Below, piece after piece: positions 375 to 64,000 of a stretch of DNA of 64,000 bases. Origin of the DNA: Psammoneis japonica (Eukaryota); contig QPGO01000003.1 of NCBI GenBank assembly GCA_008632985.1, positions 868,001-932,000 on the forward strand, read 5' to 3'. A model generated the notes under the pieces. The model was not told the origin of the DNA. It made no database searches and saw only the letters and a program-made list of their open reading frames with translations. Each line of letters begins with the position of its first letter. Positions within the stretch are counted from its first letter, which is position 1. Made by a program: the position numbers and the translations under genes.

Positions 375-1354
375 TTGTTCAAGGGCTTCTTTTGAGCGAC
401 AATAAACCCCCAAACGATGTTCTTCTCTCCCAGATCGCGCCAGGTGCACAAGCCTGCTTTCATTTTTTCTTGAAAGGGTTTGGTAATGCCAAAGCCATCG
501 CCTTTGGCTTCTAGGACTTTGCATACCGTCCCAAGTGAGCCGACACATTGGTGGAAGCATTGGGCAAGGCTTCAAAGTTGGTAAATCCAGCTGCCTCCAT
601 GGCTGCTTTGTAGTTGGAAATGGTTCCCATTTTGGATGGGCCAATGCAATCATAAATGGGTTGCATCTCCTTTGGGTCAACCTCTTCCTGCTGCATGATG
701 TCAGAGAAGATCATAAATCCACCAGGTTTCACGGCACGAGCCACTTCCTTCATGGCTTGTTCTTGGCCTTTGGGTCCGACATGCAACAAGGCATCCATGC
801 CAATGACGAGATCACAACTCGCATTGGGCACGCTCTTCACTTCGAGATGGGATTCCTCATGAATGGCAATGTCCTTGTCACAACCCATTTCTGCATTCAT
901 CGACATGCCTTTTCACACATTTTGTTGGAAATGTCACAGCCAATCGTGCCAGATTGAAGGACACCGGCTTGCCACAAACGACACAGCAATCCACCACAGA
1001 GCCACATCCCACATCCAATGTCTTGACTTTGGCATTGTCAGGAAATTTGAATTTTGTCAGCTTGACAAATTCTTCCTCTTGGTGGATTTGAGCCTGAAAG
1101 ATTTGTTCCTGCAAGTCCTTCTGTTTGTCAGCATCGGTCAACAAATCACACCTGAAAAAGTTCGCGGTTGTTGCAACGACAACTCCAAATGTCAACAACA
1201 ACTGCTGAGCACACCAACAATGTCAGCAACTCATTGCCTTCCGAACATGCGTGTTGTCCCCCCAGATCCTGGTGCAAAACAATTGAGTGTCTTCCTTGTC
1301 ACAATGTTCTTTGGCCAAAGATGTGCCTTTGGTCCCTTGATCTTTCAACGACAT
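375..1354 (-). pseudogene. Glycine/sarcosine/dimethylglycine N-methyltransferase-like pseudogene (class I SAM methyltransferase)
   Basis: Fragments in several frames: MSLKDQGTKGTSLAKEHCDKEDTQLFCTRIWG, TLDVGCG (SAM motif I), DLVIGMDALLHV...ARAVKPGGFMIFSDIMQ, GLCTWRDLGEKNIVWGFIVAQK. Frameshifts and stops present. Probable Tyr to Cys changes (EHCD, LFCT). Confidence 0.75.
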
Positions 1355-3650
1355 GTTGGATGGATGCCGTTTGTCAGGGACACCAGCAGTTGAAGAGAGA
1401 ATCGAAGAGAAGATGTGTTGAAGAGCAAGTCTTAAAAAAATGCATTGAAGAGAAAGACCAGCTGTCGGACGGCACTTTGACAATTTCTCATTTTGTGGTT
1501 GTGTGGAATGCTTTGCCTTGTTGAGCAAGAAACCTTCTTCCAGTGTGCCTCAGACTGTTTCTGCCACCTCACCACTTTCTCTTCTGCCTTCCTTGATTGG
1601 ATTTTGGCTTCATTGCTGCCTCCTTTTCCTTCTCTGTTCCCTTCCGGTTTCCCTCACTTCCTTCTGATCTCTGGCTGGCAGCTCTCAGTTGTTTGGTTGT
1701 GTGGGTGCAAGCATGAGGAAAATGTCACTGACATGCTCAAAATACAAAACATGCAAACACCCCCAACTCATGTTGTGCTCGAGTGCCGCAAACATGCAAG
1801 GGGCCCAAAACACTCTGCAGAACATGAAGAATCCAAAAAGAACCCTTGCATGATGGTGGAGCATGCACAACATGAAACAGGGGTGTCTTGAAAACAAATG
1901 TTTGATGCATCATTGACGTTTCGTGTTAGAACAATGTGCACATTTTATGGAAATTTGCAAAAATCAGGCTCGACCTTCAATTTTCGAATCGCCAAAAAGA
2001 GATGAAGACAACAGAATGTCGCTTGACACACAAGGTGAGTTTGCCATTTTCATTGTTTGTGTTGAGTGTGTCATGCTTGACAATGCGGAATGTTGGTGGT
2101 TGTCGAGGAGGTGCGCTTTGCAACTGTTTTGAGTGTGCCAATGCCAGCGAATGTGCCAATGACATTTTTCTCTTGTGCAATGCATGGCCACACTTGTTTT
2201 CAGGGTTCTTAAATTGCAGAATGTGATCATGACATTGACCACAAATGATCACCAGATCTGATGTTTGATGATTGTAAAAGGCGTTTGTCAGACAGGAACA
2301 TTCTGATTGCAAGTGCCGTTGTCACAGTTGCAATTGCAATTGTTTGCAATCATTGTATGAGCTCTTTTTGAGAGCCAAGCAAGAGAATTTGGAATGTGGA
2401 ATCTTGCGTCAGGCACGTGCGCATCACATTTTTTGGAGGCACCACACCACCGCCGCTCTTTTTGGATGCCACGCAGTCTCCAGCTGCTGGCACTGTCTCG
2501 TTTTCGCATTGCACCTCTCAAGAAAAGAGAAACCAGAGAGACAGAAAAAAGCAATTGCCGCTCCTCATTTTGCCTCTCCTTGCAACAATTGCATCTTGGG
2601 ACAAGGTGGTGGAAAAGAGACAACTGCATCACAAGTGAAGCCACTGCTGCCAGCTTTCTGTGTGCGTGTTTCCAGTGTCATCTTAGACACTGTCTTTCAG
2701 GTCACCATCAAGGTCCAAATTGATGCTGCAAATGCACCCAGATCGTGCACTGCAGGCTCTGTTTTTCTTTGCCTGTGATGAGCATTTCTCCTGCATGGAG
2801 GGGGTGCTCCCACGTGGAGGGTGGCATTGCAATGTGATGATTGTGATGGAAGTGTGATTGCCAAATCAGCACATTCACAACTTTTTTACAATGACACACT
2901 CATGATTTCTTTGCAATGCAGCACATTTTTATAAACTGATTGTGACAGAAAATTCTGAACCCTGCTTGTTTTGGATCTTTCTCCACTCATCCGTCCATCA
3001 TCCGTTCGTGCGTGCAAACACGCTGTGCTGCAGTTGTCATGCGTGTGCTGGATTGCATTGTGGAGCAGCCAGTTTGGTGAGGGATGCATGACAACTGGCT
3101 GGCTGCAATCATCCAGATCATCCAATGCATGGTGCAGCATTCCCCAATCATCACCCAAACAGAGCTGCCGTGCAGTGCATTCCCCACAGGGCTGAGTTGA
3201 GTGAAGGTCATGTTTGAGCTTGGAGTTTGTGGTGCCGCCAGGCACAAAATGGCATCGTTGCATCCAGGCCCAACATCAAGGGAAAGTCATAAACCAGGTC
3301 ATTGTCACTCCAGCTTCTGGCGTTGTTGTGTTGACAAGGTTTGGCATCGTGAGATCCTACAACAGAGCATCCAACTGGCGCATTGCGAGGCCCGCACTCA
3401 ACCATGTGCAACTTGCGAACCGATTCCTCCGCAAGTGCAAACCACAGGAAGATGCCAGTGTGTCTGACCTGTTTGTCCCTTGTGCCAAAGAGTGCAAAGC
3501 CACCAATCCTGATGGCTCCATCAGAGAGAGGCAACTCCATTTGGCCAATGTTGAGGCCATTTTGGACCCTGTTGCCGTCATTCCAGAGGTTGGTTCTGAG
3601 AACAAGATGCGATGCTTGCATGTGAAGAAGTCTCAAGATCAGTTGGATGT
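716..3650. other. TA-depleted tract 1 (eroded pseudogene plus degenerate repeat DNA)
   Basis: No TA seen between 716 and 1432 and very few after that; TG/CA-rich; ORFs are Cys/His-rich and Tyr-poor. Boundaries approximate. Confidence 0.85.
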
Positions 3651-5911: not shown

Positions 5912-8592
5912 AGCTGCGTTCTAGCTAGTCAGCAGTGGTTGATGTTCTGTTGTTGCTGTGCTGCTGCAGCAGCGCTGCGGCGGGGTACAGTCGTTTCAGG
6001 CATCCGTTGAAAATGCGCGCGTGCATGCAAACGCGAAAATTCCAACAGTCACTGCGGGAGTTTTTGACATGCCCTTGCGCGCAGAAATCTCCAAGACGAA
6101 AAGTGAGAAAACACGTGGGTTTCTACGCATTTCTGGTACAAAAAAGCAATGCATGGCTCCGCGGACAGCGGATCGCCAACCAACACTGATGACACCCAAC
6201 ATGCCATCTCTTACTTTCGGTCGATTGTTGTCGTTGTCGTCCAAAAGCACCTTCAGCCATGACATCCCAGCGGTCTGATGCAACAGAAGTTCAGGAACCA
6301 CGTGTGTTTGATCTTGGAGCTCTCGCAGTGCAGCACCCTCAGGGTGAAATCATGCCGGGCATCAAGCGACTGAAGAAGTCAGATTTCGTTGAGGTTGTGC
6401 TCCCGTCTACAGAAGAACTGGATGTTGGATGTCATCCCTGTCTGTCTCAGCATCAAGGCATGGACTCCCGAGAAGGAAAAGCCAAATCGGGTGAAAAGGA
6501 GCAAACAACCCAGCACACATGAGTGCACTGTGGAGCACCCGACTGGCAGCAGTGGACACAGCGGAATGACTGGCAGGAGCTGGCAGCTCAATCTAGGATC
6601 CTCGTTCCATTCCCTCAAAAGAGAGGTTGAAAGAATCCTGGAGATGGAGGATCATGAGCAGAAAGGTGATTTAAGTGCGTCGAAGAGCCCGCGGATGAGA
6701 ACAGCGAAACACTCTCCACTTGACGGCACCACCAAACAAAGGTTTCGGAGAAGTTTTTCTCAGCTTAGTTGCAACAAAGCTGCTCCAATCTCTCAATCTG
6801 GGTGACTTCAGTGAGCTCAGAACTCAATGTCATTGGCAGCGACGTGTGCTTGCATGCAGGAGCATTGACCTCAGCGACTCGATGAAGCTTCCTTGAACAC
6901 TCCAATTCGGCTTGACCAAAAGTTGACAAGCTTGTCATCTTGGAAACAACACGAGACAAACGCAACTGGCATTCATGTCAAATTCTTTCCACTTTTGATC
7001 ACTGGCTTGGACAATCTGATGACACAAGATGGGGGTGCCAAATCATTCAGCCGGCACTGCACAGTGTGCCGACTGCCACGTTGGCCAATGTCAATTGGCT
7101 GGGTGAGGCAGCAAAAGTCAAAAGCAATCCACCATTGTTCTTGCAATGCAGATGTCATTCAATGTTAGGACTGGAATTGTTCTAAATGCAAAATGCTCAT
7201 GGTGAACAGGCCAGGCATTGCAGCATGTGGATGAAGCCTCTCAAGCAAAACAGCAGTGATGTGGTTTTTGATGACAACGAGATTGTGCAAGGACAAGGAC
7301 CTGTTTGACCAAAAAGCTGCATCAACAAACAAGTTCCACACATTTGTTCTAGATGCCACTGAATGATTGCCTTCATTTGCAACCACAAAGAGGAGCCGCC
7401 ATCCTTTCCAATGTGTTGACAAAGCCGTTCCGTGATGCCAATGCTCACCTGACAAACGAAGTTGTCCAAGCGGACTTGTGCGATTGTGTCCTGCTGTGTG
7501 GACTTTCACAATCAACTCCGAAAAGGCCAAAATCACCGCCACCAATGCAGTGGTGATTTCCATCAACATGGCAGTGCTTCCCACAACAGCGCAGCTGGTT
7601 TTTCTTCCATCAGACCCACTCGCAATGGCTTGGATGTGACATGCATCGCCTCGGAGGTGGGGCCCAGGTCGGAGGTTGTTTTTGGTTGTCAGTGGTGAGC
7701 ATGCTGTAAAAATTGACTCTCTTTGCACCAGAAACATGTGGGAAGGCAACCGGCACATTCTTCCTTGTTTTTGACTTCAAGATTCTGAGCGAGGGCGCGA
7801 AGAAAAACTCGTGCAGTGACACTGGATTTTTGGGGTGTGTGTCGCGCAATTTTCAACGGATGGCTGAAACGACTGCAAGCTGGCTGCTTCTGGCTAGCCA
7901 GCTGTGGTGCTCCATGCTGCAGCCAAAATGCCGTGCAATGCATGCACACCAGCGAATCTCAATGTGTCGCATCACAGGGAAGTCTGGAAATGTCTGTCCT
8001 TTGCAGGTTCTTCCGCGAGCTTTGCACAACAACTGGCTCTTGCACATCACTCGAGGAAAAACTGGTTCTTGCATGAACATTCGTGCAACAAACTGTGTTT
8101 TTGTGCAAAGCTCACACAAAAACCCTGCAGAAATTGCACCAGGTTCTACATGGGTCATGCAACACCCAAGGTTTTTGCATGAACCTCGTGGAACAACTGA
8201 CTCTTGCGCGATCACTCAAGGAACAACTGGCGCTTGCACAACAGGCAGTTGAGCAATGCTCAGAGGATCCAGAGAGTCTGAGGGGACCGTGGACTTGTGG
8301 ACTTTGGAAGATTTTTGCAGCTGTTCCACCACTGGAAACATGACAAAACACCCTCTGAGGGCGCGCAGCCCCGTGGCACAGAGAACCCCAAGCATTTCCC
8401 AACAGCCTGAGTGATCAATGCACAGGCCAAACAGAGTGATGTGCACATGTGCAACCGGCTCACCAGTTCAAGGACACTGAAACATCCCTCCGACAAAGGC
8501 CTCAGCTAACTTCCTTCCAAGCAGGTTTGGAGCAACTCCCCAAATCCTTGACACTCTCACAATCAGGCCACTGCCATTCTGCTTCGACCACC

Positions 8593-11361
8593 ATGGGTGA
8601 AGGTGAAGACATTGAGAGACTTGCTCTGGCTGCAATCACTCGTGCAGAAGATGAGGAGTTCAAATCATTGCAAGACCTGAGGGACAATGAAGCAGCCAGC
8701 AACAAGACGGAACCAGCTGGTGTCCAACAGTTCAATCTCTTTGTCAAGAAGCACTGTGATTCCAAGGGAATCAATGGTTGCAAAAGTTTTGATCCGATTG
8801 CCAAGGCTGAGCAGCTTCCATGTGAAGGGTTGTGTGTCTCCCATGATGAGTCGATGAATCCCAATCACCAACACTGGCGGTCAGATTGTTTTGGCTCCTT
8901 TTTCAATTGTCTTGCCTGTGATGCATGCAACTGGAAGAGCCAGAAGACCAAAGTCCTTGTGGGGCATGAGGTGGCGACCGGTTGCAGCACCAGCACAATG
9001 AAAGCATGCTTCATGAGGAAGTTCCACAGCAAGCAACCCCTCTTCATTTTGGCAAGGAGGAATGGTCTCCACTTCACAGCCTGTTGCTCAAGAAATTCAA
9101 GGAACGAGCAAAGCGGGCTGGTCAACGTGTCTCCAAACCCAAAGAAACTTTGACGTCTGCCGATTGACAAGCCACAGCCACAGGCAGTTTCTTGTGTGGC
9201 ACTGCGGACACCACGGAATTCTGTGGAGTGAATGCAACGACACTCCATTTGGTTGGAAGATGACCTGCATCTCACTGATGTTCCCTCCAATGCACGTGGA
9301 TGTTTGCTGTCTGTGTTGCTGCAATGCGATGAGGGAGGGGATCCACAGGAGTTGCACCCCCTCACAAAGATGCACTTGAGGAAGACGTGCATTTTGGCTT
9401 GGCGTGTCATGCCTGGTTGTTGACGGTTGTGGCAAACCCGGCATCTTTCCAAGGTTTTCTAAGGTGGCTTCCTTTGTCAACAAAAATGACAAGACAGAGT
9501 CCCGTGTGTCCATGGTTTGGAAGCAGTTCTTTGCACCCATTGGAAAACAACACAGTGCTCTGGCAGCTGCAGCAGAATCAGCCCACGGCCTCAATCTGAA
9601 TTTGACCTCTTGCCAGGGGAGGAGAGGTGCAAGCCAGCTGCTGGCTGAAAGCAATTCAGCAAGTGGGCTGCCCCAGTGCAGCATGCATGCAGACAAAAGG
9701 TCATTTTTGTTGCGCCCTTTGTGACATTTGAAGGCTGCAACACGTCGCCGTGACACATTGACTCTTGTCAGTGGCTGCACACTGCACTCCTCCCCATGTG
9801 TCATGCATCCGTGCGGCTCTTCACTAACATGTGCTGACACTGCACGGTTTTGGCAGAACAGTGTGGGCACGTGCGAAGGAACACACAGAACTGCACAGAG
9901 TTTTGCGCGTTCGACAGTGATCAACGTTGCTGCAGACAACTCCCACTCAGGGTTTCGAACCCCTGGCCTCCTGCCTGATGGTTGCGATGAACCACTCCGC
10001 TGTGAATTCACAACGCAGCATGCATGCAGACAAAAGGTCATTTTTGTCACGCCCTTTGTGACATTTAAAGGCTGCAACACGTCGCCGTGGTGCATTGACT
10101 CTCACCAGTGGCTGTGTGTTGCACCAGGTCATGCACATGGGGTGGAATCCAAGCAGCACCCTTGCCCTCTTTAAACACGTCATCAGTTCAAAGGCCCCAA
10201 CCAACAGCGCTGGCAAGACATTGGCGGGTTGGCATTGCAATGATGGCAGATTGCCCCCTGTGTTGGCATCCATTTGAAGTCACCCAGAGCAAGTGCAAGG
10301 TTTCATCCAGGCCTTGTTCAGTGGTGACATCAATGATCAGTGGCCCACAATCATGATGAGGGACATCTTGGCCGCATCCCTTCTCTGCCATTGTGCCGAC
10401 TTCATCCTCATCATCAAGTGACATCCGGAAGGACTCTACAAGGATGACTCTTGTCATCCATTTGTCCACAAGATTCAGAAAGCCACGGGCATTGCAGGTG
10501 TGCCCCAAGACACATTTGCCACCTGGTGCAGAGAAGTCCGGGAAGGTTTTGCACAGGACAACTTCCAGGCTCTGCTGATCAACCTCTTGTCACGCAACAT
10601 GGCTCATGACACAAAAGCAGATCCACGCTGTTTGTTCAGCTGTTTCAACAAGATGTGTGCAGCCGTCAACAGCTTGCATGCCCAGAAGATGAGCGCCAAC
10701 AAAGAGAATGGACTGCTCTGCCTTGGTGTGGTTGATCTCATTCACACAACCCGGACTTTGCAAGCACAAGCAGCAGAGCTGAAAGACCAGGTTTCCCGCC
10801 AAGCAGACCTCCTTGAAATTGAGTTCAACAAAAAACCAAAAGAGGTGGTTGAAGCACCCCCTGAGAAGATCATGTTGTTCTCAGACTCTGTGAAACACTG
10901 GAGCAACAACTTCTCCTTGGAGGATGTCTTCTTCCATTTCTTCAAGCAAGGGTCAATGCATTGAAGGGTGTGACCACAAGAAAAGCACACCTGAGTGTAA
11001 GAAGAAACTGCCCAGTGAGCAAAAGAAGATCACAGGCAAGTGTGAGCATTTGAAGCATGCAATGAAGGTCCTCCTCTGCTTCTGTGACAGCTGTCCAAAG
11101 CCCGCACCTCAAGAACCCGGAAGTCTCCCCGCCTGGCACCGTGATCTCTCATCCATGGTGAAACAGGCTGTCAGTGGTTCAGCAAAGTCGCTCCCAGACC
11201 CACCCAGCTGTGGGGTTGCCCCAGCCCATCTGATGAAAGCCACCATCGTCAAGGATTGGGATGATCCGGATGGCCCCAAAGCCAAACGCCTGCCCGAAGA
11301 CATGCCAGAAAGCGCCCCCACTCATTTCACCAAATGTGGCCCAGGTCAATTGGCAGTCTAA
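8593..11361 (+). mobile_element. Degenerate tyrosine-recombinase (CryptonS-like) element, interrupted by a TRIM
   Basis: After removing 9677-10123 the protein reads LTSCQGRRGASQLL...P/QVMHMGWNPSSTLALFKHVISS...AGKTLAGW. This resembles the HxxR...GW...Y box of stramenopile Crypton recombinases. Multiple frameshifts; ends not defined. Confidence 0.55.
9677..10123 (-). mobile_element. TRIM-like non-autonomous LTR element, copy A (447 bp)
   Basis: 110 bp direct terminal repeats at 9677-9786 and 10014-10123; element ends TG...CA; PPT GGGGAGGAG abuts the 3' repeat; 4 bp TSD CCAG (9673-9676 / 10124-10127). Confidence 0.9.
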
Positions 11362-11988
11362 AGCATTTGTTGTCTAATCTAATGTGAGTCATAAATTTAA
11401 TTGTGCAGCCATTGTGTCATCGAACTGCTGGGGACAACAAAATGTCTTTCACCAAGAGTGCACCACAGCCAGTCAAACAAAAACAGACAAGGTTGGGCAG
11501 CCCATGTCACCTGCCCAAGCGCTCTCTTCCCTTTTTCATGCATTTATTTAGCGTTCATCATTGTCATTTATCATTCATTGTAAGAGTTTGTTGATGATGA
11601 AACTGTCATCAATGGAGCAACACTCGGGCCTCTCTCCGCGTGGTTGCGAGCGAGCCGCAAAGTCATGAACGACAAAGACATTAACGTAAAATTTCTGGAA
11701 ACCACAGTACTGTAAAGTTGTTTGGACAGACTGTTATTCAAAAAGACATATCGGGCGGAGGCGTGTGGAAATACTTATTTATTGGAAAGGTTCAAGATAA
11801 AAATGGAAATTCCAAATTGGTGCGCGTCATGGAGACACCAAGTCTCTTTGTCCTGGAGCAGCCGCTGTAAAAGCCCGAGCTACTCCTTTGTGTATGATTT
11901 GGCGTCAATCATTAGTCGTCATCTAAAGTCTATAATGCGCTTTATCAAAGCGCTTTATCGGAAACGAACCATCGTGGTGTATAGGCTT

Positions 11989-13491
11989 CTACCAATCCTT
12001 TTCGCCCAACTTGATGTAAACGACTCGTCGCTCCTCCGACTCATTTTCCAACGTCACTGCTATTTCTTCGCCAGCTACACGGCCTTCCAATTCCTTTTGC
12101 AACTCATTGTAGCTTTCAATAGTATTTCCTCCGACAGCAACAATGCAATCACCAAACTCCAAGCTGCCATCCTCCGAGATGGTGAGCGGTTTGATTTCTG
12201 CAAGAGCTGCAGGAGAGCCCTCTGCTACCTTTGAGACCCAAACACCGTTTCCTTTGTCCTTCAAAAGTGAACTGGTTCCCTTGTAGATGCCAATTCCCAA
12301 GAATCCAACACTTGGTCGTTGTCCGTTTTCGACTCGGTCATGGACAGTCATGCTGGACACTACCGGTTTCATTGCGTCCGCGGGCACGGCAAAACCAATT
12401 CCAGCATTCGATCCCGACGTGGAATAAATAGCAGTATTCATGCCCACAACCTTGCCGCTACGATCCAACAAGGGACCACCGGAATTGCCTGGATTAATGG
12501 CACAATCGGTCTGAATGCATCCTCTAAGCACTGGGCCTCGCACGGTTGTTGCAAGTTCTCGATTCAAGGCCGAAACTACACCCGTTGTGACTGTATTGTC
12601 CAAGCCGAATGGATTGCCAATTGCAATGAGACTTTGTCCCACCAAGAGATCCGACGACTGACCAAATTCCAATCGACTCGATGGAGAAGTGCTGTTGCCA
12701 TTATTGTTGTTTAATGCTTTCAGCACAGCAACGTCGAGTTCTGGTTTCACATTGACAATACGACATTCTTGATATTGCGTGGCACTGTCTATTCTAACAT
12801 ACACCTTCGGATCCACCACCAGATTTGCCAAAGAACCATCAACAGACTTTAGTAGGAACTGTTGTATCGTAGAGTTAACCAGGGACTTGTCTATTCCCGT
12901 CCACGCCGTCACATTGTTGACTAGGTACTCTTGACTGTTTTCAAGCATTTTGGTCGTTTGTTGCATCTGGTAAGCCCGCTCAATTACCTTTGAGACGCAA
13001 CAAGCACACAAAATATGTGAGAATTGGATTGTTACCCAGCAAAATCAATCTGATCCAGTACTCACATGATAGTTCGTCACAATGTATCCATCGTTCTCAA
13101 TGACAAAACCCGATCCCGACCCAAGACTTTGACCTGGCGGCAAGTTTGTTTTACGACTTTTAGGTCTCGGTTTTCGTCGTTGCCAGCCTTGCTCATCTTC
13201 AGGTAAACGAGGAATAATTGACGTCACAAATGCGACGCTTGGGCCGCAATTGCGTACAACTTGAATAACGGCACGTTCCTCATCCGACATGTTTTCTTCG
13301 AGTTCTGCGACCGGTACCGCAATTCGATTGTCGGAAGCTTTCAATTCAACCGGGTGTTGGTTTATTCTCTGGAACTGACTCCTCCTTGTTGCTTCCGGGA
13401 ACAGGCTAAAGCCGTCAACAGCACTCTTCGTTGTCATTGCAAGAATCCAGAGAGCCGCATGCCTACCGCCACAACCATGTAAAACCTTCAT
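11989..13491 (-). CDS. Deg/HtrA serine protease with PDZ domain, probably plastid-targeted; exons 13491-13066 and 12987-11989
   Basis: GSGSGFV, IVTNYH/VI, DVAVLK, AIGNPFGLD, IQTDCAINPGNSGGPLLD; GT-AG intron 12988-13065; signal peptide ending AVDG-F. Confidence 0.95.
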
Positions 13492-15415: not shown

Positions 15416-15979
15416 GGGAATTTGCTTCAGCGAACAGGATCAAAAATTATTACACGTTGATCATCGCTCACGGGTTGGCCCCGGTAGCATTCTTCCAAGC
15501 GGTTTGGTTCAGACAACTCTAGAAAACAATGGAAACCAATCGAAGTTGCAGACTGCAGATCTGATAGTAAGGTAGAGTGTCGGTCTCGTCCAAGTTGGTG
15601 GATGATGATGAGTGGGGTCTATCCAGGTTGTCATCTGGCGGGTCTCGGTCGAGACGTGAGGCGAGGCATCAAGCTCCGCTTTCAGCTTGGTGTTCGCCCT
15701 ACCGGTACTACATATTGTAGCGGCTCGTGAATCACGACTAAAAACATAGTTGTATGCAATACTCTAGAAATTAAAGTTATTTTTATATTCGTGCTTGAAG
15801 ATAATTTTATCGCGCTATTTGTTTCTACAATCAGGCAGAATGGCATTTGATTCAACGTTCGAATTTCAAATTTTTGAAGCGCAGAAATTGTTGGATGGAT
15901 GCGTTGGTCTCAAAAAGAGAACCCGCCACTGCGCCGATGGTCGCATTTCCTCCTTACAATATGTACAAGGAGAGCAAAA

Positions 15980-26720: not shown

Positions 26721-26730
26721 TATCAGTTGG

Positions 26731-49277: not shown

Positions 49278-50349
49278 GGAGTGTCGTTTTCTCCGCAAAA
49301 CTGGGCCCGCCAAGATGGATGCAACATCAATGATTCTTACACAGTCTCGAATGTGCATTTTTTGGTGAGCCGTTAAAAGTCATGCTTTGATGCAGTGCGG
49401 TTGTGCGACGACACAGGCGAACGCTTTCGAACTGCTTCGCACAGCACCGTGATGTGCGATGCTCAACAGCTGTGATTTGAATTAGAGTTCTCAATCCATT
49501 GAGGTCACATGACAAAATGCAACACATTGGCTTGTGTGTGTGTGAAGTGTGGTTTTTGCATCTGTGGATGTGCAATTTTTCAGAATCTGGAATTTTGACC
49601 GGACTTTTCGATTTTGACCGAAAAGAGAAAGTCCGGTCAAAATTCAAATTTTCGGTCAAAATGAGCCGAAAAAAAAGAGGTGTTTTCGGCTCACTTCAGT
49701 GGCCTGCTGTCTGTAACCAAAGCCCGTTTGATGGCAGGCCGATGCTTGTTCAAGGAGCACCACACAACTGCTGTTCAGAATCATCCTTCTTCATGTTGTC
49801 TGCGGATTAAATCCAAAGATGTACAAGGTTGCACAGACATGAAAAAACTGACCTGAAAATGGTTTTCAGCTCACTTCAGCCTCATTCACATTTTGTGTGA
49901 TTGCATCAGACGGCAGTGCTGAGGCACTTTCTGATTGCTTGTTTGTGCAACTCTTTGATGGTGTGTCATTGTGTTGTCCAACGGCCTTTCGTGTGAAGAT
50001 GGGAAGGATTGAAGTGACCGGAAAATGAAAAAGACCTGTTTGAAATTTCGGGCCGAATTCGATTTTTCCGGTCGGATTAATCGGACATTTGTTGCTTGAC
50101 CAGAATTCTCTCAACTGACCGGAAATTTGGCGTTGATGTCCAATGATCACATTCAGTTTTAAAGCTGTCATTGTCAGTGTTGCCACAAAAGCTTGCATGT
50201 GATTTCATTGCATGTCTCTGCGTCACTTGCACAACGAAAACGTGGCATGGTGCATGCAGGCAGCCCAAACGAAGTCTCTCGATGGCTTTCGAAGAACAAA
50301 GCCAAGGCTCCACGCTCACTCAGGAGCCAAGATGCAGACGCATCCACCC

Positions 50350-52059: not shown

Positions 52060-52879
52060 GCAGCAGCACACAATGTAGTTGTAAATCTAGATTGCATTGT
52101 TTGGGGTGCTTTTGGCTAGCTCTAATTTTTCTGTAGGATGTTTTTCAAATCTAGCTCTTGCTTGTGCAAGGCACTTGCTTGCGAGCAGCATGTGCTGGGC
52201 CGACTGATGGGGTCCAGCACTCCTGGATGAAATCAGAGTGAGAATGTCAGCCTGGCAAGACATCTGGACAAACTCCTTTCACATCGTAATTGACCTGCCG
52301 TTCACGGCAGTGGTCTTCTTCCCGTGTGGATCCGCAGCTGACCTGGATGCACAGACGACTGATCTGCGCCGAATCCCGTTTCGCGTTTGCAGAACAGGCA
52401 TCCAAACTTTGCGCATCAGAACATGACTTTCCCGCAGCTTCAAGAAGCGCACAGCGCAGATTGCAAGCGAGACTGCATCTGTCTTGCCCCCCGCTTGCTC
52501 TTGCAGTGGACGAGAACATGCAACAGATGCAGATGTGAATGACTGTGATGCAACAACAGATGATTCAGCAAGGTGCACAACTTCAGGCTGGTCTTGATGA
52601 CCGGACACCTGCAGCTCAGGCACTCTTCACCTCAAGAGGACCAAGGCGATTGCTCTCCTTCATCAGCTGCCTTGACGGAAAGAAAGCTGATGTTGCTGAT
52701 TGTTGTTTGAACAAGAACTTGGCAGCCAATTCTGCGATCAAGCACAACAAGGTCTGGGGTCACACAGAAATGAAGCTCCAAATCTCTGACTTTGAGCAAG
52801 CTGGCAATGGGCATTGTCATCTGCATCAGAGCTTGGATGATGACAAATCGAGAACAACACTCTCATGATGACACCGCCA

Positions 52880-53141
52880 GGCCTGTTCCAGCTCCAGGTG
52901 TTCCGCACGGGTTCAATTTCCATCATTTGGAAATTTGTGCATTTGGCGCAATTGACTTTTTCCAAATCCGTTTTTTGCCAAATCGAAGGGTGAGCGCACA
53001 CTTTACATGCATTTTCGGGTGTACACTCACCTTTCGATTTTCGAAACGATCAAAATTGAAGGAGTCAATTGCACCAAACTGCACAGAAAATCGGCCTCTC
53101 TTGCGTGATGAAAAGCAGAGCACCTGGAGCTGGAACAGGCC
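52880..53141. mobile_element. ~260 bp MITE of a related family
   Basis: 21 bp perfect TIR GGCCTGTTCCAGCTCCAGGTG / CACCTGGAGCTGGAACAGGCC; TSD not clear. Confidence 0.8.
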
Positions 53142-53736
53142 AACATGAGATTGATCAGTGATGCTGTGACCCCATTCTTCAGATGACCAACAAGAATGAA
53201 CCTGCATCATCGTGTGATTGATTTGCAATTTTTGACTTCCGATCAATTCTGCATGATCATTCTGACCTTTGTGCGCATCCACGATTGGCGTGCAAAACAC
53301 ATCAGTCATGTGGAGAACCGTTCGGCACATCAAGAAAGGTGGAATCAAATGATGGAACCCTCCCATGCCGACAATGCAAACAACATCGGACGAGACAACA
53401 TCGCCAGCAGGACAATCCCAGGAGAGGCATCCCCCCCATGATTTCATTTCCGGCATGACCGCAGTGGAAACTGCCACCTGGTGAATCATTGCTTCCTCCG
53501 GTTCTCCAAAACACTGACTCCACCGATTGCACATCCTGGAAAATCCATTTCAATCCGTTCCAGTGCAGATTGGTTGCGCAGATCGTTGTGGGTGGACACC
53601 TGAATGATTCCAAAAACATGATGCCCCAAATCCAGAAAATCCGCTTCCTTGGCTTGTCGGCAACCACAATCTGGCAGAGGCGAGACAACAAGTCTTTATC
53701 TGCGAGTGAAGTGTCATGTTGTTTTAGATCAGCACA

Positions 53737-54966
53737 TCAAAGGAAGTGTTCAGAAGCACCTCTTTGGTTCTTCTGATTGCTCCGTGAGTCAATGAAGCAC
53801 TCGTTGAAAGCTTGGCAGTCAGAGACTGCTGTAGACTGCAAAGGGAGCCGCCAATCACAAATGTCTCGAATCTTGTCCAGACGCACAACCAGGTTGTTTC
53901 CTCCAACCAGATGGGGTGCAGGATCCCCGTGAACGTCCACGGCCCCTTGAATCAATTGCACAGCAGGAACTGCAATGTTGTCCGATGGCGACGGGTGTGA
54001 AATCTTGGGAACAGGAGCTAAATTTCCACGTGCCGCAGCAAACGCACTGGCGCTGTCACGATGAAGGGCACCCATGCCGAATGACCAAACTCCCACAAAC
54101 TGTGCTGGTTGTCCAGCAGGCATGTTTGCACGATGCCACAATGCTGCCAGTGCAGCAAATGGACGTTTTCCATTGGCAACTGCAGGTCCTGACCATTTGT
54201 AGATTTTGACACCGAGGGCATGGTCTGATTCAGGTTGTTGCAAGCAAGTGCCGAGCTGCTCCATCAGCCCCTTTGGGCCACGATTGCCAATCTCGAGCTC
54301 CACAACAAGAGGAGATCTGAGTTGAGGATTCGTCGGTGGCTGGTTTGGACAGCTGCGCTGCAAAAACGCGTCTGGAGCAATGGTGGTGCCCAAGATTAAA
54401 ACATGATCTCCATCACTGTCGACATCAAATGTTCCGTCACATTGATCCAAAAAGGTGCCAAGGTCAAGAATTGGACGAGCCACGCTCTTTGAGTGGGCAT
54501 CTCCATGTGAAATCTTGACAATGAGTGAGCCCTTCTCTTTCGTCAATGCATGCCAGAGCTTGGCAATCCCTGTCCCCACCAGGGCTTCTCGTTTGAACTC
54601 CAAGCTTGGTGATTTGGAGACATTTTGCAAGACCAACAAAGGCCCGGCAAGATTTGGTTCTTCCTCACCTCGTTTCTCAAACTCAAGAGCTGCAGTTCGA
54701 AGGTGATCTTTGGTGAGAGTCGTCGTGGAGCTTGCTGGCTTGCAAACACACTCGCTGCTGCCTGTTTCATTCTTGTTCTCGCAACGCAACAACTCGGATT
54801 TGACCGCAGCCGTGAACGAGTCTCCTTTGCTGTTCTTCTCGGATGATTCGGCAGACGGCATTGACACGACGGCACTTTGCCCAAGAGACGGCAAGGGTGC
54901 CGGTGTGAGGTTCGACAGCGCCAGCAGTGCAAGAAGGCATCGTCGAAGGAGGCGGGGCAAGAACAT
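53737..54966 (-). pseudogene. TA-eroded but still open gene for a Uma2/PD-(D/E)xK nuclease-like (Crinkler-related) protein
   Basis: 409 aa frame with GDAHS, IAPDA, PLVVELEIGNR and ALGVKIY; only one Tyr in 409 aa. Confidence 0.5.
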
Positions 54967-55595
54967 TTGTGCTGTTCCTCTCTGTCATGCCGTTGTGTTG
55001 AACACCAATGATGACTTGAAATTTTGTACGAACAACAGCCCCACATGTGATACATCGATGGAAAGCTGAGAGTCTGCTCATTCCATTGGGGGGAGAATGG
55101 GGGGTAAGCACTAACGGTTTGTTCGGAAGATGAGGTGTAAGTTTTAGGTGTGATCATTGAAATATATATATTTATTAAAATAATAAATGTTGCGCCTTAT
55201 TTCTCTGATTGGCGAGGAACCGAAATGGGGGAACGTTTTTGATTGAGACGCTAAACACGATTTGATTTGGACCGTTGATATTTTAGTGCATTCTCCAGAC
55301 ATGAAGGCGTGCACTAAAATACACAGGTCCCGGTGTCAAAAACTCCAATGCGCGACCCTCAAGCATAGTGTTCCCCCATTTCAAAGTCATCGAAAATATC
55401 CAGAAACACGGTACTTCTATACGGTACGATTTTAAAGCGCGACCGTCTGCCTTGCCCCCCGCTCTTGCACTTACTGTACTTCGCGAAATCATCACGACAA
55501 TGGTGCGATGGGGGAGAGTGCGGAGGCGCAACTACATCATGAACATTATGGTGGCGACGAAATATGCAAAACCCATAACATAATGATTATTAGCC

Positions 55596-58233: not shown

Positions 58234-59330
58234 CTATTCTTCGAGAGCTCTCTTGACGCCTCTTTTTCCAACTCCTTTCTTGACAAAGCTCGGGTTGTGC
58301 TTTAAGAACCAAAACACAAAGTTATCGTCGCTTTGACGACCAGCCAACACGTGCGGCCAGAGAGCATCAGGAACTCCATTTTCTCGGCGCAGCAGGTGTC
58401 GTCCGGCACGGTTCATTTTGCAGTAGCAGTCCATTTCATCTTGAGATGCACGGTTGGGCATTTCCACAGAAGTCAAAGAATACGAAGCCTCGCCGATTTC
58501 TTCGGGTGAAATGGTGAGCACAGTGCAATTCCGCAATACGAGACTTTTGAGAGTCGGCAGTGATAGAACCTCTTTGCTAATTTGAGTCAATTCTGTACAG
58601 GCAGCCGCATCCAGCTCCTCCAGGTTTCGAAGCGATCCCATTGCAGGATGCAGCTCTTCAAGACCACGACAACCGTACAAAATCAAGTTTGTCAGATTCG
58701 ACAGACTGCTTGTGCGAATGCTTTCCAAGAATTCTCCTGTGCAATGCAAAATGCCACGCAAAGAGAGAGTTTTCAGCTTGGACAGCTGACCAATTTCAAC
58801 AGGAACTTCAGCGAGACTGACACACTTAGAAAGTTTGAGGACCTCCAACTGATGCAACTGTCCAATTCCCGGGGGCAGCCGAGTGAGGGAAAAGCAATTA
58901 ACCAATTCCAACCGCTTCAGACGCAACAGCCGAATCAAACCATGAGGCAATCGTTCGAGCTTCAAGCAATTGTTCAATCGCAATTCCTTTAAGCTTGTCA
59001 ATTGTCCCAACTCATCAGGCAACTCAGTCAGTCTCTGCAACATCCAAGGTCCAACACTTCGAGTTTTGTCAAACGCCCAATCTCTGGAGGCAGTCGCTGG
59101 AAATTTACACAATTCTTCACGTCTAACTCCACCAGTCGGCGCAACATGCCGATCTCGGGTGGCAACTCAACCAATCTTGAGGTCCACGACACGCAAATTT
59201 TTTTTGCATGAGCACACCCTTCGCATCCTGGTTCAACTTCAACACTGCAGAATGTCGTGAATGCCTTCTCTGACAGTCCTACAGCTCGCACCATGGCACC
59301 GAGGATTCTGGCAGATGCGCCGTCCGCCAT
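58234..59330 (-). CDS. Leucine-rich-repeat protein, frameshifted near 59040, 5' part TA-eroded
   Basis: Repeats of LxxLPxxIGxLxxLxxLxLxxC; C-terminal NRAGRHLL...LWPHVL motif typical of diatom LRR families. Confidence 0.8.
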
Positions 59331-62300
59331 TCTGCAGCAAATGTCGAGCTAGATGCGCGGCCCTCAAAAGGCGATGTGTCTTTGCGCACTCAGCACCGTC
59401 TTTCACAAAAAACGAAAGACCTCACGAGTTGGACGATGAACGCAAACAGTCGATGGTGACTGTTGTCGACAGCAACGTTTGTGCCGGCCGCGGGTGCTGG
59501 CTGTAGAGCACGCACGCACGTGCGTGTGAGGAGGTTGCGTGCAACGTCACCCAGTGGTGCGGTGTGAAGTGCAGACGGCGCAGTGGGATGAAACGGCGTC
59601 ATGCAGGTGGGGAACGGGTTGCAACTTTAAACTTGCTGTGCCACCTGTCGTCACAACAATCAGTCATGCAATCGAAAGCCTTTGTCTCCAGTCTGCCTGA
59701 TGGCGCACTCCTTTCGTGTCTTGATGGTCCTGCTCATAAATTTCACCTGGACTCTCCTTCTTGACCAAATCCATTGTCCAGTCATTGACTGTCCTGGGTG
59801 ACAAACAAAAGAACTCAGCTCCACAACAAAGCCAAAGCTTTTCATGGTTGTCCCACACTGTTTCATGCTGGAACCACTTTGCCAGCTTCATGGCATCAAA
59901 TGCGATCTCCTCTTTGTCCATCACCAGTCTGCAAAAGTACCTCCTCGCCTGGATCTTTCTCCAAGTGGTCCACACATTCCTTTTTTGTCCATTCCACAAG
60001 TTGGCATGCTGATGCTGGACATGTCCTTCAAAGCACAAAAATGCCAATCCTGTCCATGGCTGATTTCATGTCCCTTGACACCACTGCAAACTCATCTCTC
60101 GTCTCACTCTCTCCATTGTCATGGCAATGAGTGCTGACACAATGCTTCTCACCTTGCCTGTCCTGGTGGGTCGTGATGTGGTCCCAATGCTCCTTGCACT
60201 TGTGTGCATTTGCCCCATGATTGACAATTGTATTCACCCAGCTGATCTCATCATTCATGGAGAACATGTGGGTGCTGGCATGCATGTGCTCAACTGCTTT
60301 GTCACTCCACTCTCTTGCATGAGCCAAAATCAAAACCATCAACCTGCATTTGTTTTTCCATTGTCCTTCCACACCCACCGGAGTTCCTCATCATCCACAC
60401 AAAATTGAGCACTGTCCAACATGCAAAACATGTTTGTGCAGTCTTGGCGGAGGTGCGGGCCATCTGCATCTTTCCCTCCTCCCCTTCTTGATCCAGCACT
60501 CCCCATTGTCATCAGTGTGTTCCCTTCTCCCAGAGTCAATCAAGCGCTCCACCTCGTTGTGAGCTGTGCCACACTCTGCTGCTGCAATTTGTTCTCTTGT
60601 TTCATCTGTCATGTTTGTCATCTCCTCAAACATTTTTGCCAGCATTTGTTTGGCCAACGGGCCAATGATCTGTCATTTTGCACAACTGGACACATGGTTT
60701 GTGGCAAGGTGTTGTCTCCTCGGAATGGGTGCACCTCTGCTTTTACATTCAATCAAAATTCATGGCAAGATGCATCCAGACATCAGAGGCTGCAACACAG
60801 TGATCATCACATGCCTTCTCACAGTGATTTTTGTTCCTTTTGCAGATGCTGTTTTTACAGTTTCAAACCTCATCAGTTGTGCAGCTGGCAACAAATTTTA
60901 ATCCACAAAAGGCAATTAATTTGGCTGTGGAGACATCTTTTTATCCACAAGAAATCAACTTTAACTTTCAAAAAGCCCCCCTCTTTTCCCATTTTGTGTG
61001 TGCTTTCCTTCACCATGGAAGCTGACAATCATCATCATTGGTTTGTTTCACGTCACATGCTGGTTTTAACATTTAAAGTGACATGTGCAATGAATTCAGT
61101 CCACTGTTCTCAATTGGCTGTGATGCATTGCTTTGGCTTTTTGACATTGATCATCAATGAATGCCAAGTCAATGCTGTGGTCCCGGTTGTTCTGCACCTC
61201 CAATTGGCTTGTGTTGGAGTGTTGCTTTCCTTGCCTCCGTTGCTGTCTTCTTGGCCAGCTGCATCTTCCTCCTCATCTCTTTCATTGCCTGGTGCATCCA
61301 TTGTGTTGTCGTCCTTCTCATCATCACCAGAAAGTTCCATTGTTGCTTGAGTTCTCATCTCCAATTCTGCTTGTTTTTTAGTGTTTCTTCCCTTTTTTCC
61401 TTCACCTTTGCTCTCCTTTTTCTTTCTGCTGTTGGTGCACCACATGTCAAAATGCACACCCTTCTCACTTGCCCTGTCTTCCTTTGCCTCCCCAAGCAGT
61501 TTGTTGAAGCACAGCATTCCTCCATCCTTCCAAGAGTCATGCTGTCATGATGGGTCTGTGTGCAACAGCGCCGGTTTCCCCTCTTCACTCCCTTCATCAT
61601 TTCCCTCCTGCTTGGTCTTGCACTCCCAAACCTTCCAGTGGCTTTCCATCATCAACAGGGCCAGTGCCTTGTTGCTTGCCACAGCCAGATCTGCAGCCTT
61701 GGTGCTGCTGGACTCTGCCATCCTTCTCCACATTGCAGCGCTCTTTGTGAATTTTAGGACATTGTTGCAGAACCATGCACGCACGCCTCCCTGTTCTTTC
61801 TCTTCTCAGACACAACGGTGTCAACCGTCTCATCCTCCCAAGTTGCAAGGAGCTCTTCTTCAATGTTGGCTTTGTCCTGTTTCTGCTTCCTGGTGGATTT
61901 CTTCCTTGCTTCTTTTTTTCTTTTTCTTGCGGATTTCCCTGGCTTGTTTTTCTGTCATGACGACTTCAGCAAAATGAGAACGTCATTGGCAGCCAGCACC
62001 ACACCTGTTCCCACTTTGGAAATGCCCCACTCTGCCACACTTGCCACTCATTGCACTCTTCATTGTCATCTGACACATGGTGTTTCTTTTTCATTGATCG
62101 CACTGAGCATGCTTTTCTTCGCCCAGTCCTCCCATGGTCCTGCCCAGCCCATTCGCGCTTGCTGAACTTGCCATCTGCCATGTTTTTCCGCATCAGCCAT
62201 GACACCTTGCTGCCACTTGCCATGTCCGCTTTCATGAGAAATTTTGCCTTTGGGAACAGCTCTCTCCGTGCCATCTCTTCCACCTCTCTCTTCAGCGATT

Positions 62301-64000
62301 GGTGATCAGTGGCAGCCCCCAACCGCTGCAACACTGCTGTTGGCCTCGGGCCATTGGGCACTGCCTCTGCCCCTGCCGCATCCTTCTTTGCAGCTTTCTT
62401 CCTCCTTGTTGACTCATTGCATCATTGTCAGTTCCTTCAGTTGCCAGAATCGTGTGGTGCAACAGGTCTTCAAAGGAAGACCGGCTTTGCACAATTTCAA
62501 ACCTCTTTCTTGACACTCTGATGGTGACACTGCTTCCCCTCATCATGCATTTTTAACTGGCATTTCTTTCCAAAACAATCACATTTGGCAATGTTCATGG
62601 TTTTTTTTTTGAAAACAACATCCTTGGTTGCATTTGTTCAAATTCAAGAGATGAAATGTTCAGTTCAAACAGTGTGGTTAATTGTTGATGATGAACTTGA
62701 CATGCAACTTGATTGTTGCATTTGAAACTTTTAACCACACAGATTCATGCATGAACATCAATCCCTTTGAAGGGCTGAAGTTTGCACCCATGCACTCTTA
62801 ACCTCTGATTGCTGCTTGGCGCCAAAATTGATCTCCAGTCCACTTCTTCCACAGCGTCCTCCTTGAAATGGACAATGACAAAATTGCTGCACCTTTCCTT
62901 GCACGAGCAATCAGTCATGTGATCAAATGCATTTGTCACCTCACAAACACAACCAATGAAATGCTCGACATGATCATGATGGATCTTTTCTTTCTTCATT
63001 TTTAGATGATGTCTCCACCATTGTCTCTCCTTCTTGTCCCCACAATGACAGTTGGAATCCTCACCTGATTCCATTTTCTCAATGATCTCCAATGTCCAAT
63101 CATTGACCGCCCTTGGTGTCAATTCAAAGAACTCCAATTCATTGCACCGCCACAACCTGTGGGGTTTGTCTTGCATGAGTTGTTGCTCAAACAATTCCGC
63201 CAGCTTCCTGGCATCAAATGCAACACCCTTTCTCTCCACAACCAGTGAGTGCACACCTCCCAAACCATTGTCCAATGAAAGCAGTCCGCATCTCCCGCTT
63301 TGGTCCATTCCACAGGCAGGCAAGCCAATGGTTGAGTCTTCTCTCAATGCATCAACGTCTTGCTTGTCAATTGCCAAACAAAGCTTGCCCCCCCTTGACC
63401 CAGCAGCTAAAAGATCTAGCACCTCATTGTTGTGACAGTTGTTCGACCAAAAACGGTTTTCCTTGCCTGTCCGGGTGTGTTGCTGTTAAGCTCCAATGCT
63501 GCCGGGTTCTGTGAGCATTCCTTGCACGCTCAATGATCTCACTTGCATGCTCGTCATTGTTGTGAATGGAGAACATGGCGTGGGTGGCATGCATGTGTTC
63601 CCCCACTTCTTTGCTCCATTCCTGCATGTCCTCATGCACCTTGCTCATGATCCTGCCCTTGGTTTCCCACAATTCCTTCCATTTTTCCTTGACGGTTTGT
63701 TCTTCCCTCTCTGTGTTTTTCCAACAAATCTTCCAAATTCCATCAACAGATGGAGGGTCTTTGCCCAAGTCACTCCTTGAGATGCTGCTGCATGACCCAA
63801 TTAAACAAAACATGTCCATGCAGTCTCTTTGCAGGTGCGGGTCCCAGGAGTGTTCCTTCCTCCCCGTGCCAAACAAGCAACTTGGCTCTTCTCATCTCCA
63901 TCTTTTCTTCTTTTCTCTCTTGTTTCAGACTGTTCGCCTCTTCAAATTTCTTTGAGTGGTCATCAGGCCAGCGTGCCAGCAACAAATTGTTCTGGATGAC
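59130..64000. other. TA-depleted tract 8: old degenerate DNA, also CG-poor, with two related segments (~59660-60660 and ~62745-63950)
   Basis: Minus-strand remnants FFCLSPRTVNDWTMDLVKK vs FFELTPRAVNDWTLEIIEK and HQDRQGE vs HPDRQGK. Confidence 0.75.

Follow-up and report, generated by a model that had tools for sequence, protein, structure and literature searches.

Repeat-induced point mutation (RIP), the textbook case of the self-mutation of repeats, is restricted to fungi and converts C to T. Its mirror image, an A:T>G:C change at the dinucleotide TpA (also written TA below), is so far known from one preprint, whose accessible text describes it for two viral insertions of one rhizarian alga, the chlorarachniophyte Bigelowiella natans (Mettrop et al. 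2026, bioRxiv 10.64898/2026.01.13.699255). The present work concerns a stretch of 64,000 bp from the diatom Psammoneis japonica (assembly GCA_008632985.1, contig QPGO01000003.1, positions 868,001 to 932,000 of the forward strand), hereafter the window, from whose first base all positions are counted. TA is nearly absent from eleven tracts of this window, which are best explained as transposon-derived and one of which holds a full-length Ty1/copia retrotransposon with long terminal repeats (LTRs) whose conserved Tyr codons read almost throughout as Cys or His.

The B. natans preprint reports a TpA-only A:T>G:C hypermutation of integrated DNA of nucleocytoplasmic large DNA viruses and virophages. 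In mutation-accumulation lines, 231 of 302 new point mutations fell in the giant-virus and virophage regions and 230 of these 231 were A>G or T>C changes, all at TpA, at a rate about 1000 times the background and in some lines only (10.64898/2026.01.13.699255). According to the same accessible text, the 95-Mb genome carries 124 TpA-poor, CpA- and TpG-rich clusters of at least 3 kb, TpA-depleted coding sequences are enriched for reverse transcriptase and DDE-endonuclease Pfam families, and the main target is a transcriptionally silent region present in a single copy; its authors propose an ADAT2-like DNA adenine deaminase and, in that text, do not mention diatoms. Diatom transposons, for their part, are CpG-methylated via DNMT5a, and some diatoms possess the RID-related DNMT4 (PMC9998398), an article whose accessible part mentions neither TpA nor deaminases. 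In the full-text literature searched, with subscription journals outside its coverage, no report of TpA loss in diatom transposons was found.

A first, sequence-only reading of the window had proposed a genome-defence system inverse to RIP and had known of no description of such a process. The preprint describes the same TpA-only process, so that this interpretation is partly supported: it was right on the signature, on the two strands and on the DNA level, and what it saw, though not new in kind, is a new and much more extreme case from another lineage. The window and B. natans, as the latter is described in the preprint, share A>G and T>C changes almost to the exclusion of others, a restriction to TpA, TpG and CpA as the two products, a location in foreign or mobile regions with a footprint of TpA loss, and, here, the sparing of neighbouring host DNA; we infer that the same kind of process has acted in both. 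They differ in that B. natans is a chlorarachniophyte (Rhizaria) and the present organism a diatom; in that the two viral insertions still contain 3.3% and 9.2% TpA, whereas 55% of 64 kb is down to 0.47% here; in that viral targets are proven there, whereas transposons, including a very high-copy copia family, are concerned here; and in that de novo events were observed there, whereas end products are read here. Beyond the main text of the preprint, the window brings in a second lineage, transposons as targets, saturation, CpG decay as a term of comparison and a preference for certain flanks. With fungal RIP it shares a context-bound transition hypermutation confined to repeats, the ruin of coding capacity and the independent mutation of the copies after insertion. 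RIP, however, is a C:G>T:A change (CpA>TpA in Neurospora) that raises TpA and leaves AT-rich DNA, while the tracts described here go the reverse way, TpA being erased and the GC content standing at 50.5% in the tract cores against 46.7% outside.

A 1-kb sliding scan of the window shows long stretches in which the observed/expected ratio (O/E) of TA is 0.02-0.19, alternating with others at 0.4-0.78, and the subsequent segmentation on TA density delimits 11 TA-poor tracts totalling 35,389 bp of the 64,000, or 55%. They contain 167 TA, against 1,050 in the 28,611 bp outside them (Fisher P = 2e-204), which confirms the depletion; the TA O/E is 0.04-0.10 in the individual tracts (0.07 and 0.47% TpA when pooled) and 0.41-0.59 outside. 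The eight kilobase-scale tracts of the sequence-only reading are recovered in this segmentation, three of them split by short intermediate stretches. Within the tracts TG rises to an O/E of 1.48-1.90 and CA to 1.46-1.80, from about 1.2 for both in the rest of the window, and CG falls to 0.31-0.79 from about 0.9-1.03. The other dinucleotides stay near normal (AA 1.23, TT 1.21, AT 0.88, GA 1.05, TC 1.09; outside the tracts, AA and TC are both at 1.14). Per 100 dinucleotides, the TA deficit of 3.50 and the CG deficit of 1.78 sum to 5.28, to be compared with a TG+CA surplus of 5.32; about two thirds of this surplus come from TA and one third from CG, provided that the tracts began with a host-like composition. 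The counts of TG and CA are balanced, with a skew within +-0.09 in all 11 tracts, so that both strands must have been affected, as the sequence-only reading had it. The host segments, whose TG and CA are at about 1.2, have themselves a TA O/E (0.41-0.59) below that of related environmental loci (0.72-0.93); this may come from coding bias of the usual kind or be a faint mark left by the same pressure on the whole genome.

The direction of the change can be read from tract 6 (29679-39752; 50 TA in 10,074 bp; O/E of TA 0.09, of CG 0.70), which comprises the hypermutated copia element (29600-37077, minus strand) and an older repeat block (37090-39545). The element is bounded by an LTR of 266 bp with TGACAG...CTGTCA ends (29600-29865, minus strand, the 3' LTR relative to the coding strand) and by a second one of 278 bp (36800-37077, minus strand), the two being 89% identical in a self-comparison of the window, and a 5-bp target duplication, GTGAA, is perfect on both sides (29595-29599 and 37078-37082). 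Polyprotein homology extends between them over 29903-35881 and includes a copia-type reverse transcriptase (RT; Pfam RVT_2, E 5e-13, at about 30851-31432). The presence of RVT_2 in the polyprotein, the paired LTRs and the 5-bp duplication identify a full-length Ty1/copia element. With an intact polyprotein of 1,859 residues as tblastn query, residues 1-1850 are covered, at the cost of one frame change, 5 in-frame stops and one insertion. Its RT-RNase H half has 952 relatives at E<=1e-20, the best 120 listed being long intact polyproteins of 47-68% identity.

In an alignment of this RT half with the first 40 of the best 120 relatives, stops being read as X, 440 columns are conserved in at least 80% of the sequences. 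At the 25 of them that are Tyr, the window reads 16 Cys, 6 His, 1 Tyr, 1 Phe and 1 Arg, while 364 of the remaining 415 columns are unchanged. Losses of TA from GTA, CTA and ATA codons would account for three changes of Val to Ala (GCA), two of Leu to Pro (CCA) and one of Ile to Met (ATG). Of 48 conserved Tyr codons counted along the full element, 29 have become Cys and 12 His, and 1 is still Tyr; the earlier statement that conserved Tyr codons read Cys or His thus holds for 22 of the 25 columns of the RT half and for 41 of the 48 codons of the element. Four normal related loci, taken as control, keep Tyr at 100 of 140 positions and have Cys or His in its place at 7 (P = 6e-19 against the window). 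The residue content tells the same: 0.38% Tyr and 4.68% Cys in the window fragment, against 2.9-4.6% Tyr and 0.7-1.2% Cys in the best 120 listed relatives. Related metagenome loci have a TA O/E of 0.72-0.93 in 25 cases out of 26. The relatives having normal TA and Tyr, a native TA-poverty of the family, which the sequence-only reading had named as fatal to its proposal, is excluded as the cause, and, as judged from these alignments, the direction is shown to be from TA to TG or CA, as had been proposed. An adaptive avoidance of TA by the copia element is ruled out as well, the catalytic YVDD of its RT reading CVDD.

The same shift is seen in a second coding region, a hypermutated open reading frame (ORF) of 415 codons on the minus strand (53740-54984), which belongs to an unnamed family of proteins of about 375 residues and is not a reverse transcriptase. 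It has 32 homologues at E<=1e-3 (P0241-P0272; best 1.4e-75, 50% identity), and at 9 columns in which Tyr is the majority residue among 7 of these 32 it reads 4 Cys, 2 His, 1 Tyr, 1 Ser and 1 Ile.

The comparison of repeat copies within the window places the changes in the DNA. The window holds, besides the two LTRs, a pair of non-autonomous DNA elements resembling miniature inverted-repeat transposable elements (MITEs). The first lies within the copia element (33401-33798) and has 26-nt terminal inverted repeats (arms 33401-33426 and 33773-33798, 85% complementary); other copia copies are without this insertion, contigs of the public run X1 joining 33399 to 33804. The second copy (50746-51150), in inverted orientation, is 90% identical to the first. 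A further repeat of about 400 bp is shared, in opposite orientation and at 89% identity, by tract 2 (6137-11242; 19 TA in 5,106 bp; TA O/E 0.06), where it occupies 9670-10068, and tract 4 (19840-21488; TA O/E 0.06), where it occupies 20673-21071. Transitions make up 17 of the 18 mismatches of the LTR pair, 35 of 41 in the MITE-like pair and 40 of 43 in the pair 9670-10068 against 21071-20673. In an older pair of tract 6 (37090-37890 against 38750-39545), 74% identical, they make up 116 of 159.

Many of these mismatches come as reciprocal doublets, one copy reading CA where the other reads TG. If these were due to two independent decays of a CpG, which is our null model, 0.28 would be expected in the LTR pair, 0.28 in the MITE-like pair and 0.30 in the 9.6k/21k pair; 3 (P = 0.003), 10 (P < 1e-12) and 13 (P < 1e-12) are observed, an excess of 10- to 40-fold. 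The MITE-like pair also shows 3 TA/TG and 3 TA/CA differences, so that all the types of difference announced by the sequence-only reading are seen. The old 37k/38.7k pair, with 20 reciprocal doublets against 18 expected, is uninformative, its CpGs being nearly all gone. The LTRs of one insertion are identical at integration and now differ by reciprocal doublets; the changes were therefore made in the DNA after insertion. A MITE-like element and an ORF that encodes no RT being affected too, the action extends beyond retroelements, and the DNA level of the process, claimed from the start, stands on both grounds. At the 25.4-26.5 kb locus, the window and a run X1 contig, which is from either the other haplotype or another strain, differ by reciprocal CA/TG doublets at 26196-7, 26271-2 and 26301-2, and at position 25622 the window has CA and the contig TA, in a CTAA context. 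No strand-coordinated (processive) runs of changes were detected in any of five run tests, four of them on repeat pairs and one on the Tyr outcomes (P = 0.26-0.88); neighbouring sites were resolved independently. Taken together, these results speak for many small events, recurring on the DNA duplex.

The decay of 5-methylcytosine (5mC) at CpG is the process that most resembles this pattern, in that it also turns a palindromic dinucleotide into TG or CA on either strand of silenced repeats. It starts, however, from CG and has no way of converting TAY into TGY or CAY, and 84% of the Arg columns are intact; as the sole cause of the depletion it is ruled out, in agreement with the sequence-only reading. 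In the copia RT half, 27 of 32 Arg columns are unchanged and 5 are lost, with a pattern of CpG decay (2 Cys, 1 Trp, 1 His and 1 TGA stop), as against 24 lost out of 25 for Tyr. Expressed as -ln(retention) within this half, the loss is 3.2 for Tyr TA and 0.17 for the Arg columns, which suggests that TA would be lost roughly ten times faster, or more, than CpG of the methylated type, not every Arg codon holding a CG. CpG decay is a second and slower component of the change in the tracts. The copia element is otherwise young: its target duplication is intact, its stops are few and 6 of its 18 LTR mismatches are unrelated to TA or CG. That TA is nearly gone from so young an element indicates that saturation came early after insertion.

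The boundaries of the depletion are sharp. Tracts and host segments alternate by steps, and to the left of the copia element the density of TA remains normal to about 70 bp from the start of the LTR, where the target duplication is intact; on the right, an older TA-poor repeat adjoins. The intergenic and intronic parts of the host segments share the TA O/E of 0.4-0.6, without drift towards 0.05.

The few surviving TA carry information on the flanks. Retention, defined as the tetranucleotide frequency of the 150 TA left in the tract cores relative to the host frequency, is 69% for TTAA, 32% for CTAA/TTAG, 19% for CTAG, 13% for both GTAA/TTAC and CTAC/GTAG, 7% for ATAA/TTAT, 6% for GTAC, 3% for ATAC/GTAT, 1% for ATAG/CTAT and 0% for ATAT. 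TTAA and the TAA-type sites are spared, and the three TA that are conserved in both LTRs of the copia element are all in CTAA; the finer ranking of the flanks is provisional. As TA is palindromic, survival by itself cannot assign the effect to the base 3' of the A or to that 5' of the T, and the tetranucleotide excess of xTGy against xCAy, meant to assign the side, was too noisy, transposon and host differing in composition. The outcome at Tyr codons gives a slight indication of direction: His, the outcome of the bottom strand, is found in 5 of 8 cases when A precedes the codon and in 7 of 33 otherwise (P = 0.034). This would agree with 5'-T-A-(T>C>G>>A) as the target, and the Cys:His ratio of 29:12 would then reflect context and not strand. 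An additive per-strand model agrees with the retention values, by hand arithmetic and not by a formal fit. The natural site of bacterial TadA is U-A-C in a tRNA loop, and ADARs prefer G after the edited A.

Traces of the same kind are present outside the window. An unrelated metagenome contig of 2,759 bp (L001) carries a copia relative of 62% protein identity with a TA O/E of 0.31 and a TG O/E of 1.54; its 30 conserved Tyr codons read 15 Tyr, 9 Cys and 6 His, against the 7 Cys or His out of 140 in the controls (P = 1e-8). A contig from a microbial mat (L012) gives a weaker hint, with Cys or His at 5 of 19 positions (P = 0.007) and a TA O/E of 0.80. The process would thus leave its footprints in environmental sequence of other organisms. 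The contigs of run X1, which come from one study and whose reach does not extend to rare variants or to read-level support, reproduce the tract sequence at about 55x with 0 differences over a piece of 1,759 bp (37052-38810) and another of 314 bp. In the same contigs the copia family reaches a summed depth of 2e4-1.2e5, where single-copy flanks have about 55, and is therefore very abundant in the genome of run X1; the places at which its copies vary there comprise 125 A>G, 101 T>C, 96 G>A and 70 C>T, each transversion counting 4-16.

We consider it likely that these observations are due to a DNA-level, TpA-specific A:T>G:C mutator that resembles the one of B. natans and has silenced or mobile sequences as its targets. 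A transposon origin of the tracts, namely from a high-copy Ty1/copia family, a MITE-like element, a member gene of an unnamed family and repeats that are older and cannot be classified, is the best explanation of their content and forms part of this reading. In the mechanism that we favour, transposon-derived DNA would insert and would then undergo a transition hypermutation confined to TpA, each TA being converted to TG or CA by an A:T>G:C change on either strand until nearly all TA sites had gone. The adenine preceded by T would be deaminated to hypoxanthine, which would be read as G, a pyrimidine being favoured and an A disfavoured on the 3' side of this adenine. The target would be silenced or foreign DNA, and the CpG depletion of the tracts would be the look expected of 5mC-marked diatom transposons. 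Adenine deamination is the part of this scheme that we advance tentatively, as a possible rather than a probable chemistry; to our knowledge, the only DNA adenine deaminases are laboratory-evolved.

As to targeting, every tract is depleted in CpG, which makes a coupling to the 5mC or heterochromatin state the simplest idea. In this one window, the high-copy copia element and duplicated elements are affected, and old tracts are now single-copy as judged by run X1 depth. The main target of B. natans being single-copy and silent, according to the accessible text of the preprint (10.64898/2026.01.13.699255), silencing or foreignness is favoured over repetition as the recognised feature, a sensing of copy number as in RIP being a less favoured possibility. 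A dedicated defence system, like the candidates for the acting enzyme, is put forward as a hypothesis. In its broadest form, our proposal is that diatoms and chlorarachniophytes possess a dedicated, transposon-directed DNA base editing that erases TpA, and which would hence be old or widespread in the group of stramenopiles, alveolates and rhizarians (SAR); it would proceed faster than 5mC decay and saturate soon after insertion, favouring T-A-pyrimidine and sparing TTAA, and its agent, a TadA/ADAT-type deaminase or a mutagenic thymine dioxygenase, would be a new eukaryotic genome-defence enzyme. This ensemble we regard as a serious possibility that falls just short of being probable.

Several points weigh against the reading that we prefer. 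Our evidence consists of end products within one 64-kb window, and the confinement of the depletion is judged at one boundary, the left edge of the copia element. TA being its own reverse complement, the deamination of an A after T and the alteration of a T before A give identical products. Methylation of cytosine in the tracts is deduced from CpG depletion only. Run X1 is possibly the source sample of the window itself and was sequenced on an unrecorded platform, so that its support is weak. The reading of the flanks, with TAY as the favoured target, is drawn from small numbers, and the metagenome relative L001 shows an opposite, non-significant trend, 10 of 15 TAC codons being converted against 5 of 15 TAT. 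Finally, two duplications outside the tracts (213 bp, 91.5% identical, and a pair of paralogues, 71% identical) are untouched, although they may be too short or too diverged to inform.

Among the alternatives, the one that survives best keeps the targeting and changes the chemistry. Oxidised thymine mispairs with G, and a TET/JBP-type dioxygenase producing 5-hydroxymethyluracil (5hmU) or 5-formyluracil at the T of TpA, with occasional G pairing, would give T>C changes whose products, in a palindromic TA, are those of adenine deamination. We know of no 5hmU-type modification of transposons in diatoms. In dinoflagellates, which also belong to SAR, TET/JBP-dependent 5hmU is enriched on transposons and silences them, T being replaced preferentially in TA and TC, according to the accessible text of PMC11572971; this is again a base modification aimed at transposons, and the tracts, being transposons with a second footprint of silencing type in their CpG loss, would suit it. 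The dinoflagellate modification is, however, an epigenetic mark and not a mutator in that account, and TC, its other preferred site, is not depleted here (O/E 1.09 in the tracts against 1.14 outside). We judge the thymine route unlikely.

Still less probable, in our opinion, is a mere by-product of the chromatin of silenced repeats, without dedicated defence, through an error-prone polymerase, a biased mismatch repair or a genome-wide mutability of TA masked in genes. The low TA of the host regions compared with related environmental loci would fit a weak pressure acting on the whole genome, and the independence of neighbouring sites in all five run tests is what many small events would give. 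Yet the host intergenic and intronic DNA stays at 0.4-0.6 and the copia LTR marks a step within about 70 bp. The B. natans process, moreover, is on in some lines only and runs at 1000-fold the background, as far as the preprint's accessible text goes (10.64898/2026.01.13.699255). The dinucleotides speak against two particular agents. Mutagenesis of the Pol eta type (WA>WG), a candidate of the sequence-only reading, should also target AA, and is an unlikely fit because AA is not depleted (O/E 1.23 in the tracts against 1.14 outside); GC-biased gene conversion is rejected because AT (0.88), AA and TT are spared.

The remaining two alternatives are very improbable. An artefact or a trivial effect of composition, that is a base-calling or assembly error at modified bases or a CpG decay on natively TA-poor transposons, could draw on the unrecorded sequencing platforms of the assembly and of run X1 and on the CpG decay that the tracts do show (CG O/E 0.31-0.79), but it is opposed by the reproduction of the tract sequence in the run X1 contigs at about 55x, by the half-saturated form of the same signature in the unrelated L001, by the intact relatives with normal Tyr and TA, and by the impossibility of obtaining TGY or CAY from TAY through CpG decay while Arg columns stay 84% intact. 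An ADAR- or ADAT-like A-to-I editing of retroelement transcripts, fixed by reverse transcription, would agree with the 5' U/T preference typical of RNA adenosine deaminases (accessible text of 10.64898/2026.01.13.699255) and with a retrotransposon as the best characterised target, but the strands are affected equally, reciprocal doublets distinguish the LTRs of a single insertion, as they do the window and run X1 at the same locus, and an element with terminal inverted repeats and a non-RT gene are affected too. The tracts resemble the products of APOBEC3/AID and ADAR in that mobile or viral nucleic acid is edited enzymatically in a short sequence context; APOBECs, however, convert C to U on single-stranded cDNA with a strand bias and ADARs act on double-stranded RNA, whereas here double-stranded DNA that was already integrated has undergone A:T>G:C changes, which fall on either strand and also reach DNA-type elements.

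If the mutator that we propose is real, what would it imply? The same signature, at saturation, on the transposons of a second and ecologically dominant lineage would make it a general feature to be looked for in SAR. The copia family would provide hundreds to thousands of independently mutated copies from which the rules of the process could be defined, and the enzyme could be sought by phylogenetic profiling of diatoms with and without the footprint; were it a DNA adenine deaminase found in nature, it would matter for biotechnology. There is also a consequence for annotation: as Tyr codons are removed together with TAA and TAG stops, dead transposons keep long ORFs, such as that of 415 codons described above, which gene callers will annotate as Cys/His-rich orphan proteins.

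Tract 1 (733-3589; 13 TA in 2,857 bp; O/E of TA 0.07, TG 1.74, CA 1.77, CG 0.42) is an unclassified degraded repeat; tract 3 spans 17484-19346 (TA O/E 0.10, CG 0.49), tract 5 spans 25426-26571 (3 TA in 1,146 bp; TA O/E 0.04), tract 7 spans 45324-46566 (TA O/E 0.06, CG 0.41), tract 8 spans 48013-51828 (TA O/E 0.10, CG 0.79) and tract 9 spans 52274-54962 (TA O/E 0.05, CG 0.68). Tract 10 was segmented at 58729-60767, but its first 400 bp, which overlap a leucine-rich repeat (LRR) gene, are only mildly TA-poor and the depletion is clear from about 59130, the start given by the sequence-only reading, which is the better one. Tract 11 (61093-63999; TA O/E 0.06, CG 0.31) continues past the end of the window. 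The earlier statement that every recognisable transposon, of retro and DNA type, lies in the tracts stands for one Ty1/copia element, recognised by Pfam, and one MITE-like element, recognised by its terminal inverted repeats; the other tracts are without a transposon domain, none being recognised by the Pfam scans in 10 of the 11. These scans comprised a six-frame search of four tracts (24 translations), which returned no transposon family and matched only part of a methyltransferase, at the border of tract 1, and a search of 80 of the 148 tract ORFs of at least 90 codons, which returned no transposon family and one LRR match at a tract edge; the remaining 68 ORFs lie in the four tracts scanned in six frames. 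No homologue was found for the ORF 50857-52056, in a search limited to near lengths, and for the ORF 9100-10101 an Atlas search gave nothing usable (best score 0.77).

A unit of about 50-110 bp recurs at 90-94% identity in tracts 2, 3 and 4 (9678-9777, 10015-10114, 18150-18207, 20673-20726 and 20954-21063) and is probably found at the ends of the members of a further family of small non-autonomous elements. The segment 37674-39007 has a run X1 contig depth of about 33, against 52-65 in most other single-copy bins, and this old TA-poor block may be present on one haplotype only. The members of the family of about 375 residues have the motifs APD...VELE..NRGPK, LGIK.Y, FAA.A.LW and WSFGT in common; Pfam found no domain in the 8 homologues scanned, and a transposon-borne and a host gene family are both possible.

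Outside the tracts, two duplications show ordinary substitutions: a 213-bp duplicate (3-211 against 11808-12020, 91.5% identity) with 9 conserved TA, and the paralogous genes that flank tracts 3 and 4 (15853-16411 against 21700-22276, 71% identity) with 7. Two genes adjoin tract edges. At the left edge of tract 1, 520-864 (minus strand) matches the SAM-methyltransferase domain Methyltransf_11 in its C-terminal half only (E 4.5e-6; profile positions 45-95 of 95). The upstream portion is free of TA and contains an in-frame stop, and the N-terminal half of the domain is missing from it; a host gene was either truncated by the insertion of a repeat or entered by the hypermutation over about 150 bp. 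An LRR gene on the minus strand (58234-59348; LRR_14, E 2e-14) lies at the edge of tract 10, and there the density of TA falls gradually, without a step. Among 21 long ORFs, Pfam recognised only an HtrA-type protease (11989-13011), a nucleotide-sugar transporter (43865-44980) and a sub-threshold Peptidase_M54, all in host regions. For the protease, the organism-named matches among the best 120 listed are all from pennate diatoms (Cylindrotheca, Nitzschia, Pseudo-nitzschia and Fistulifera), at 40-51% identity.

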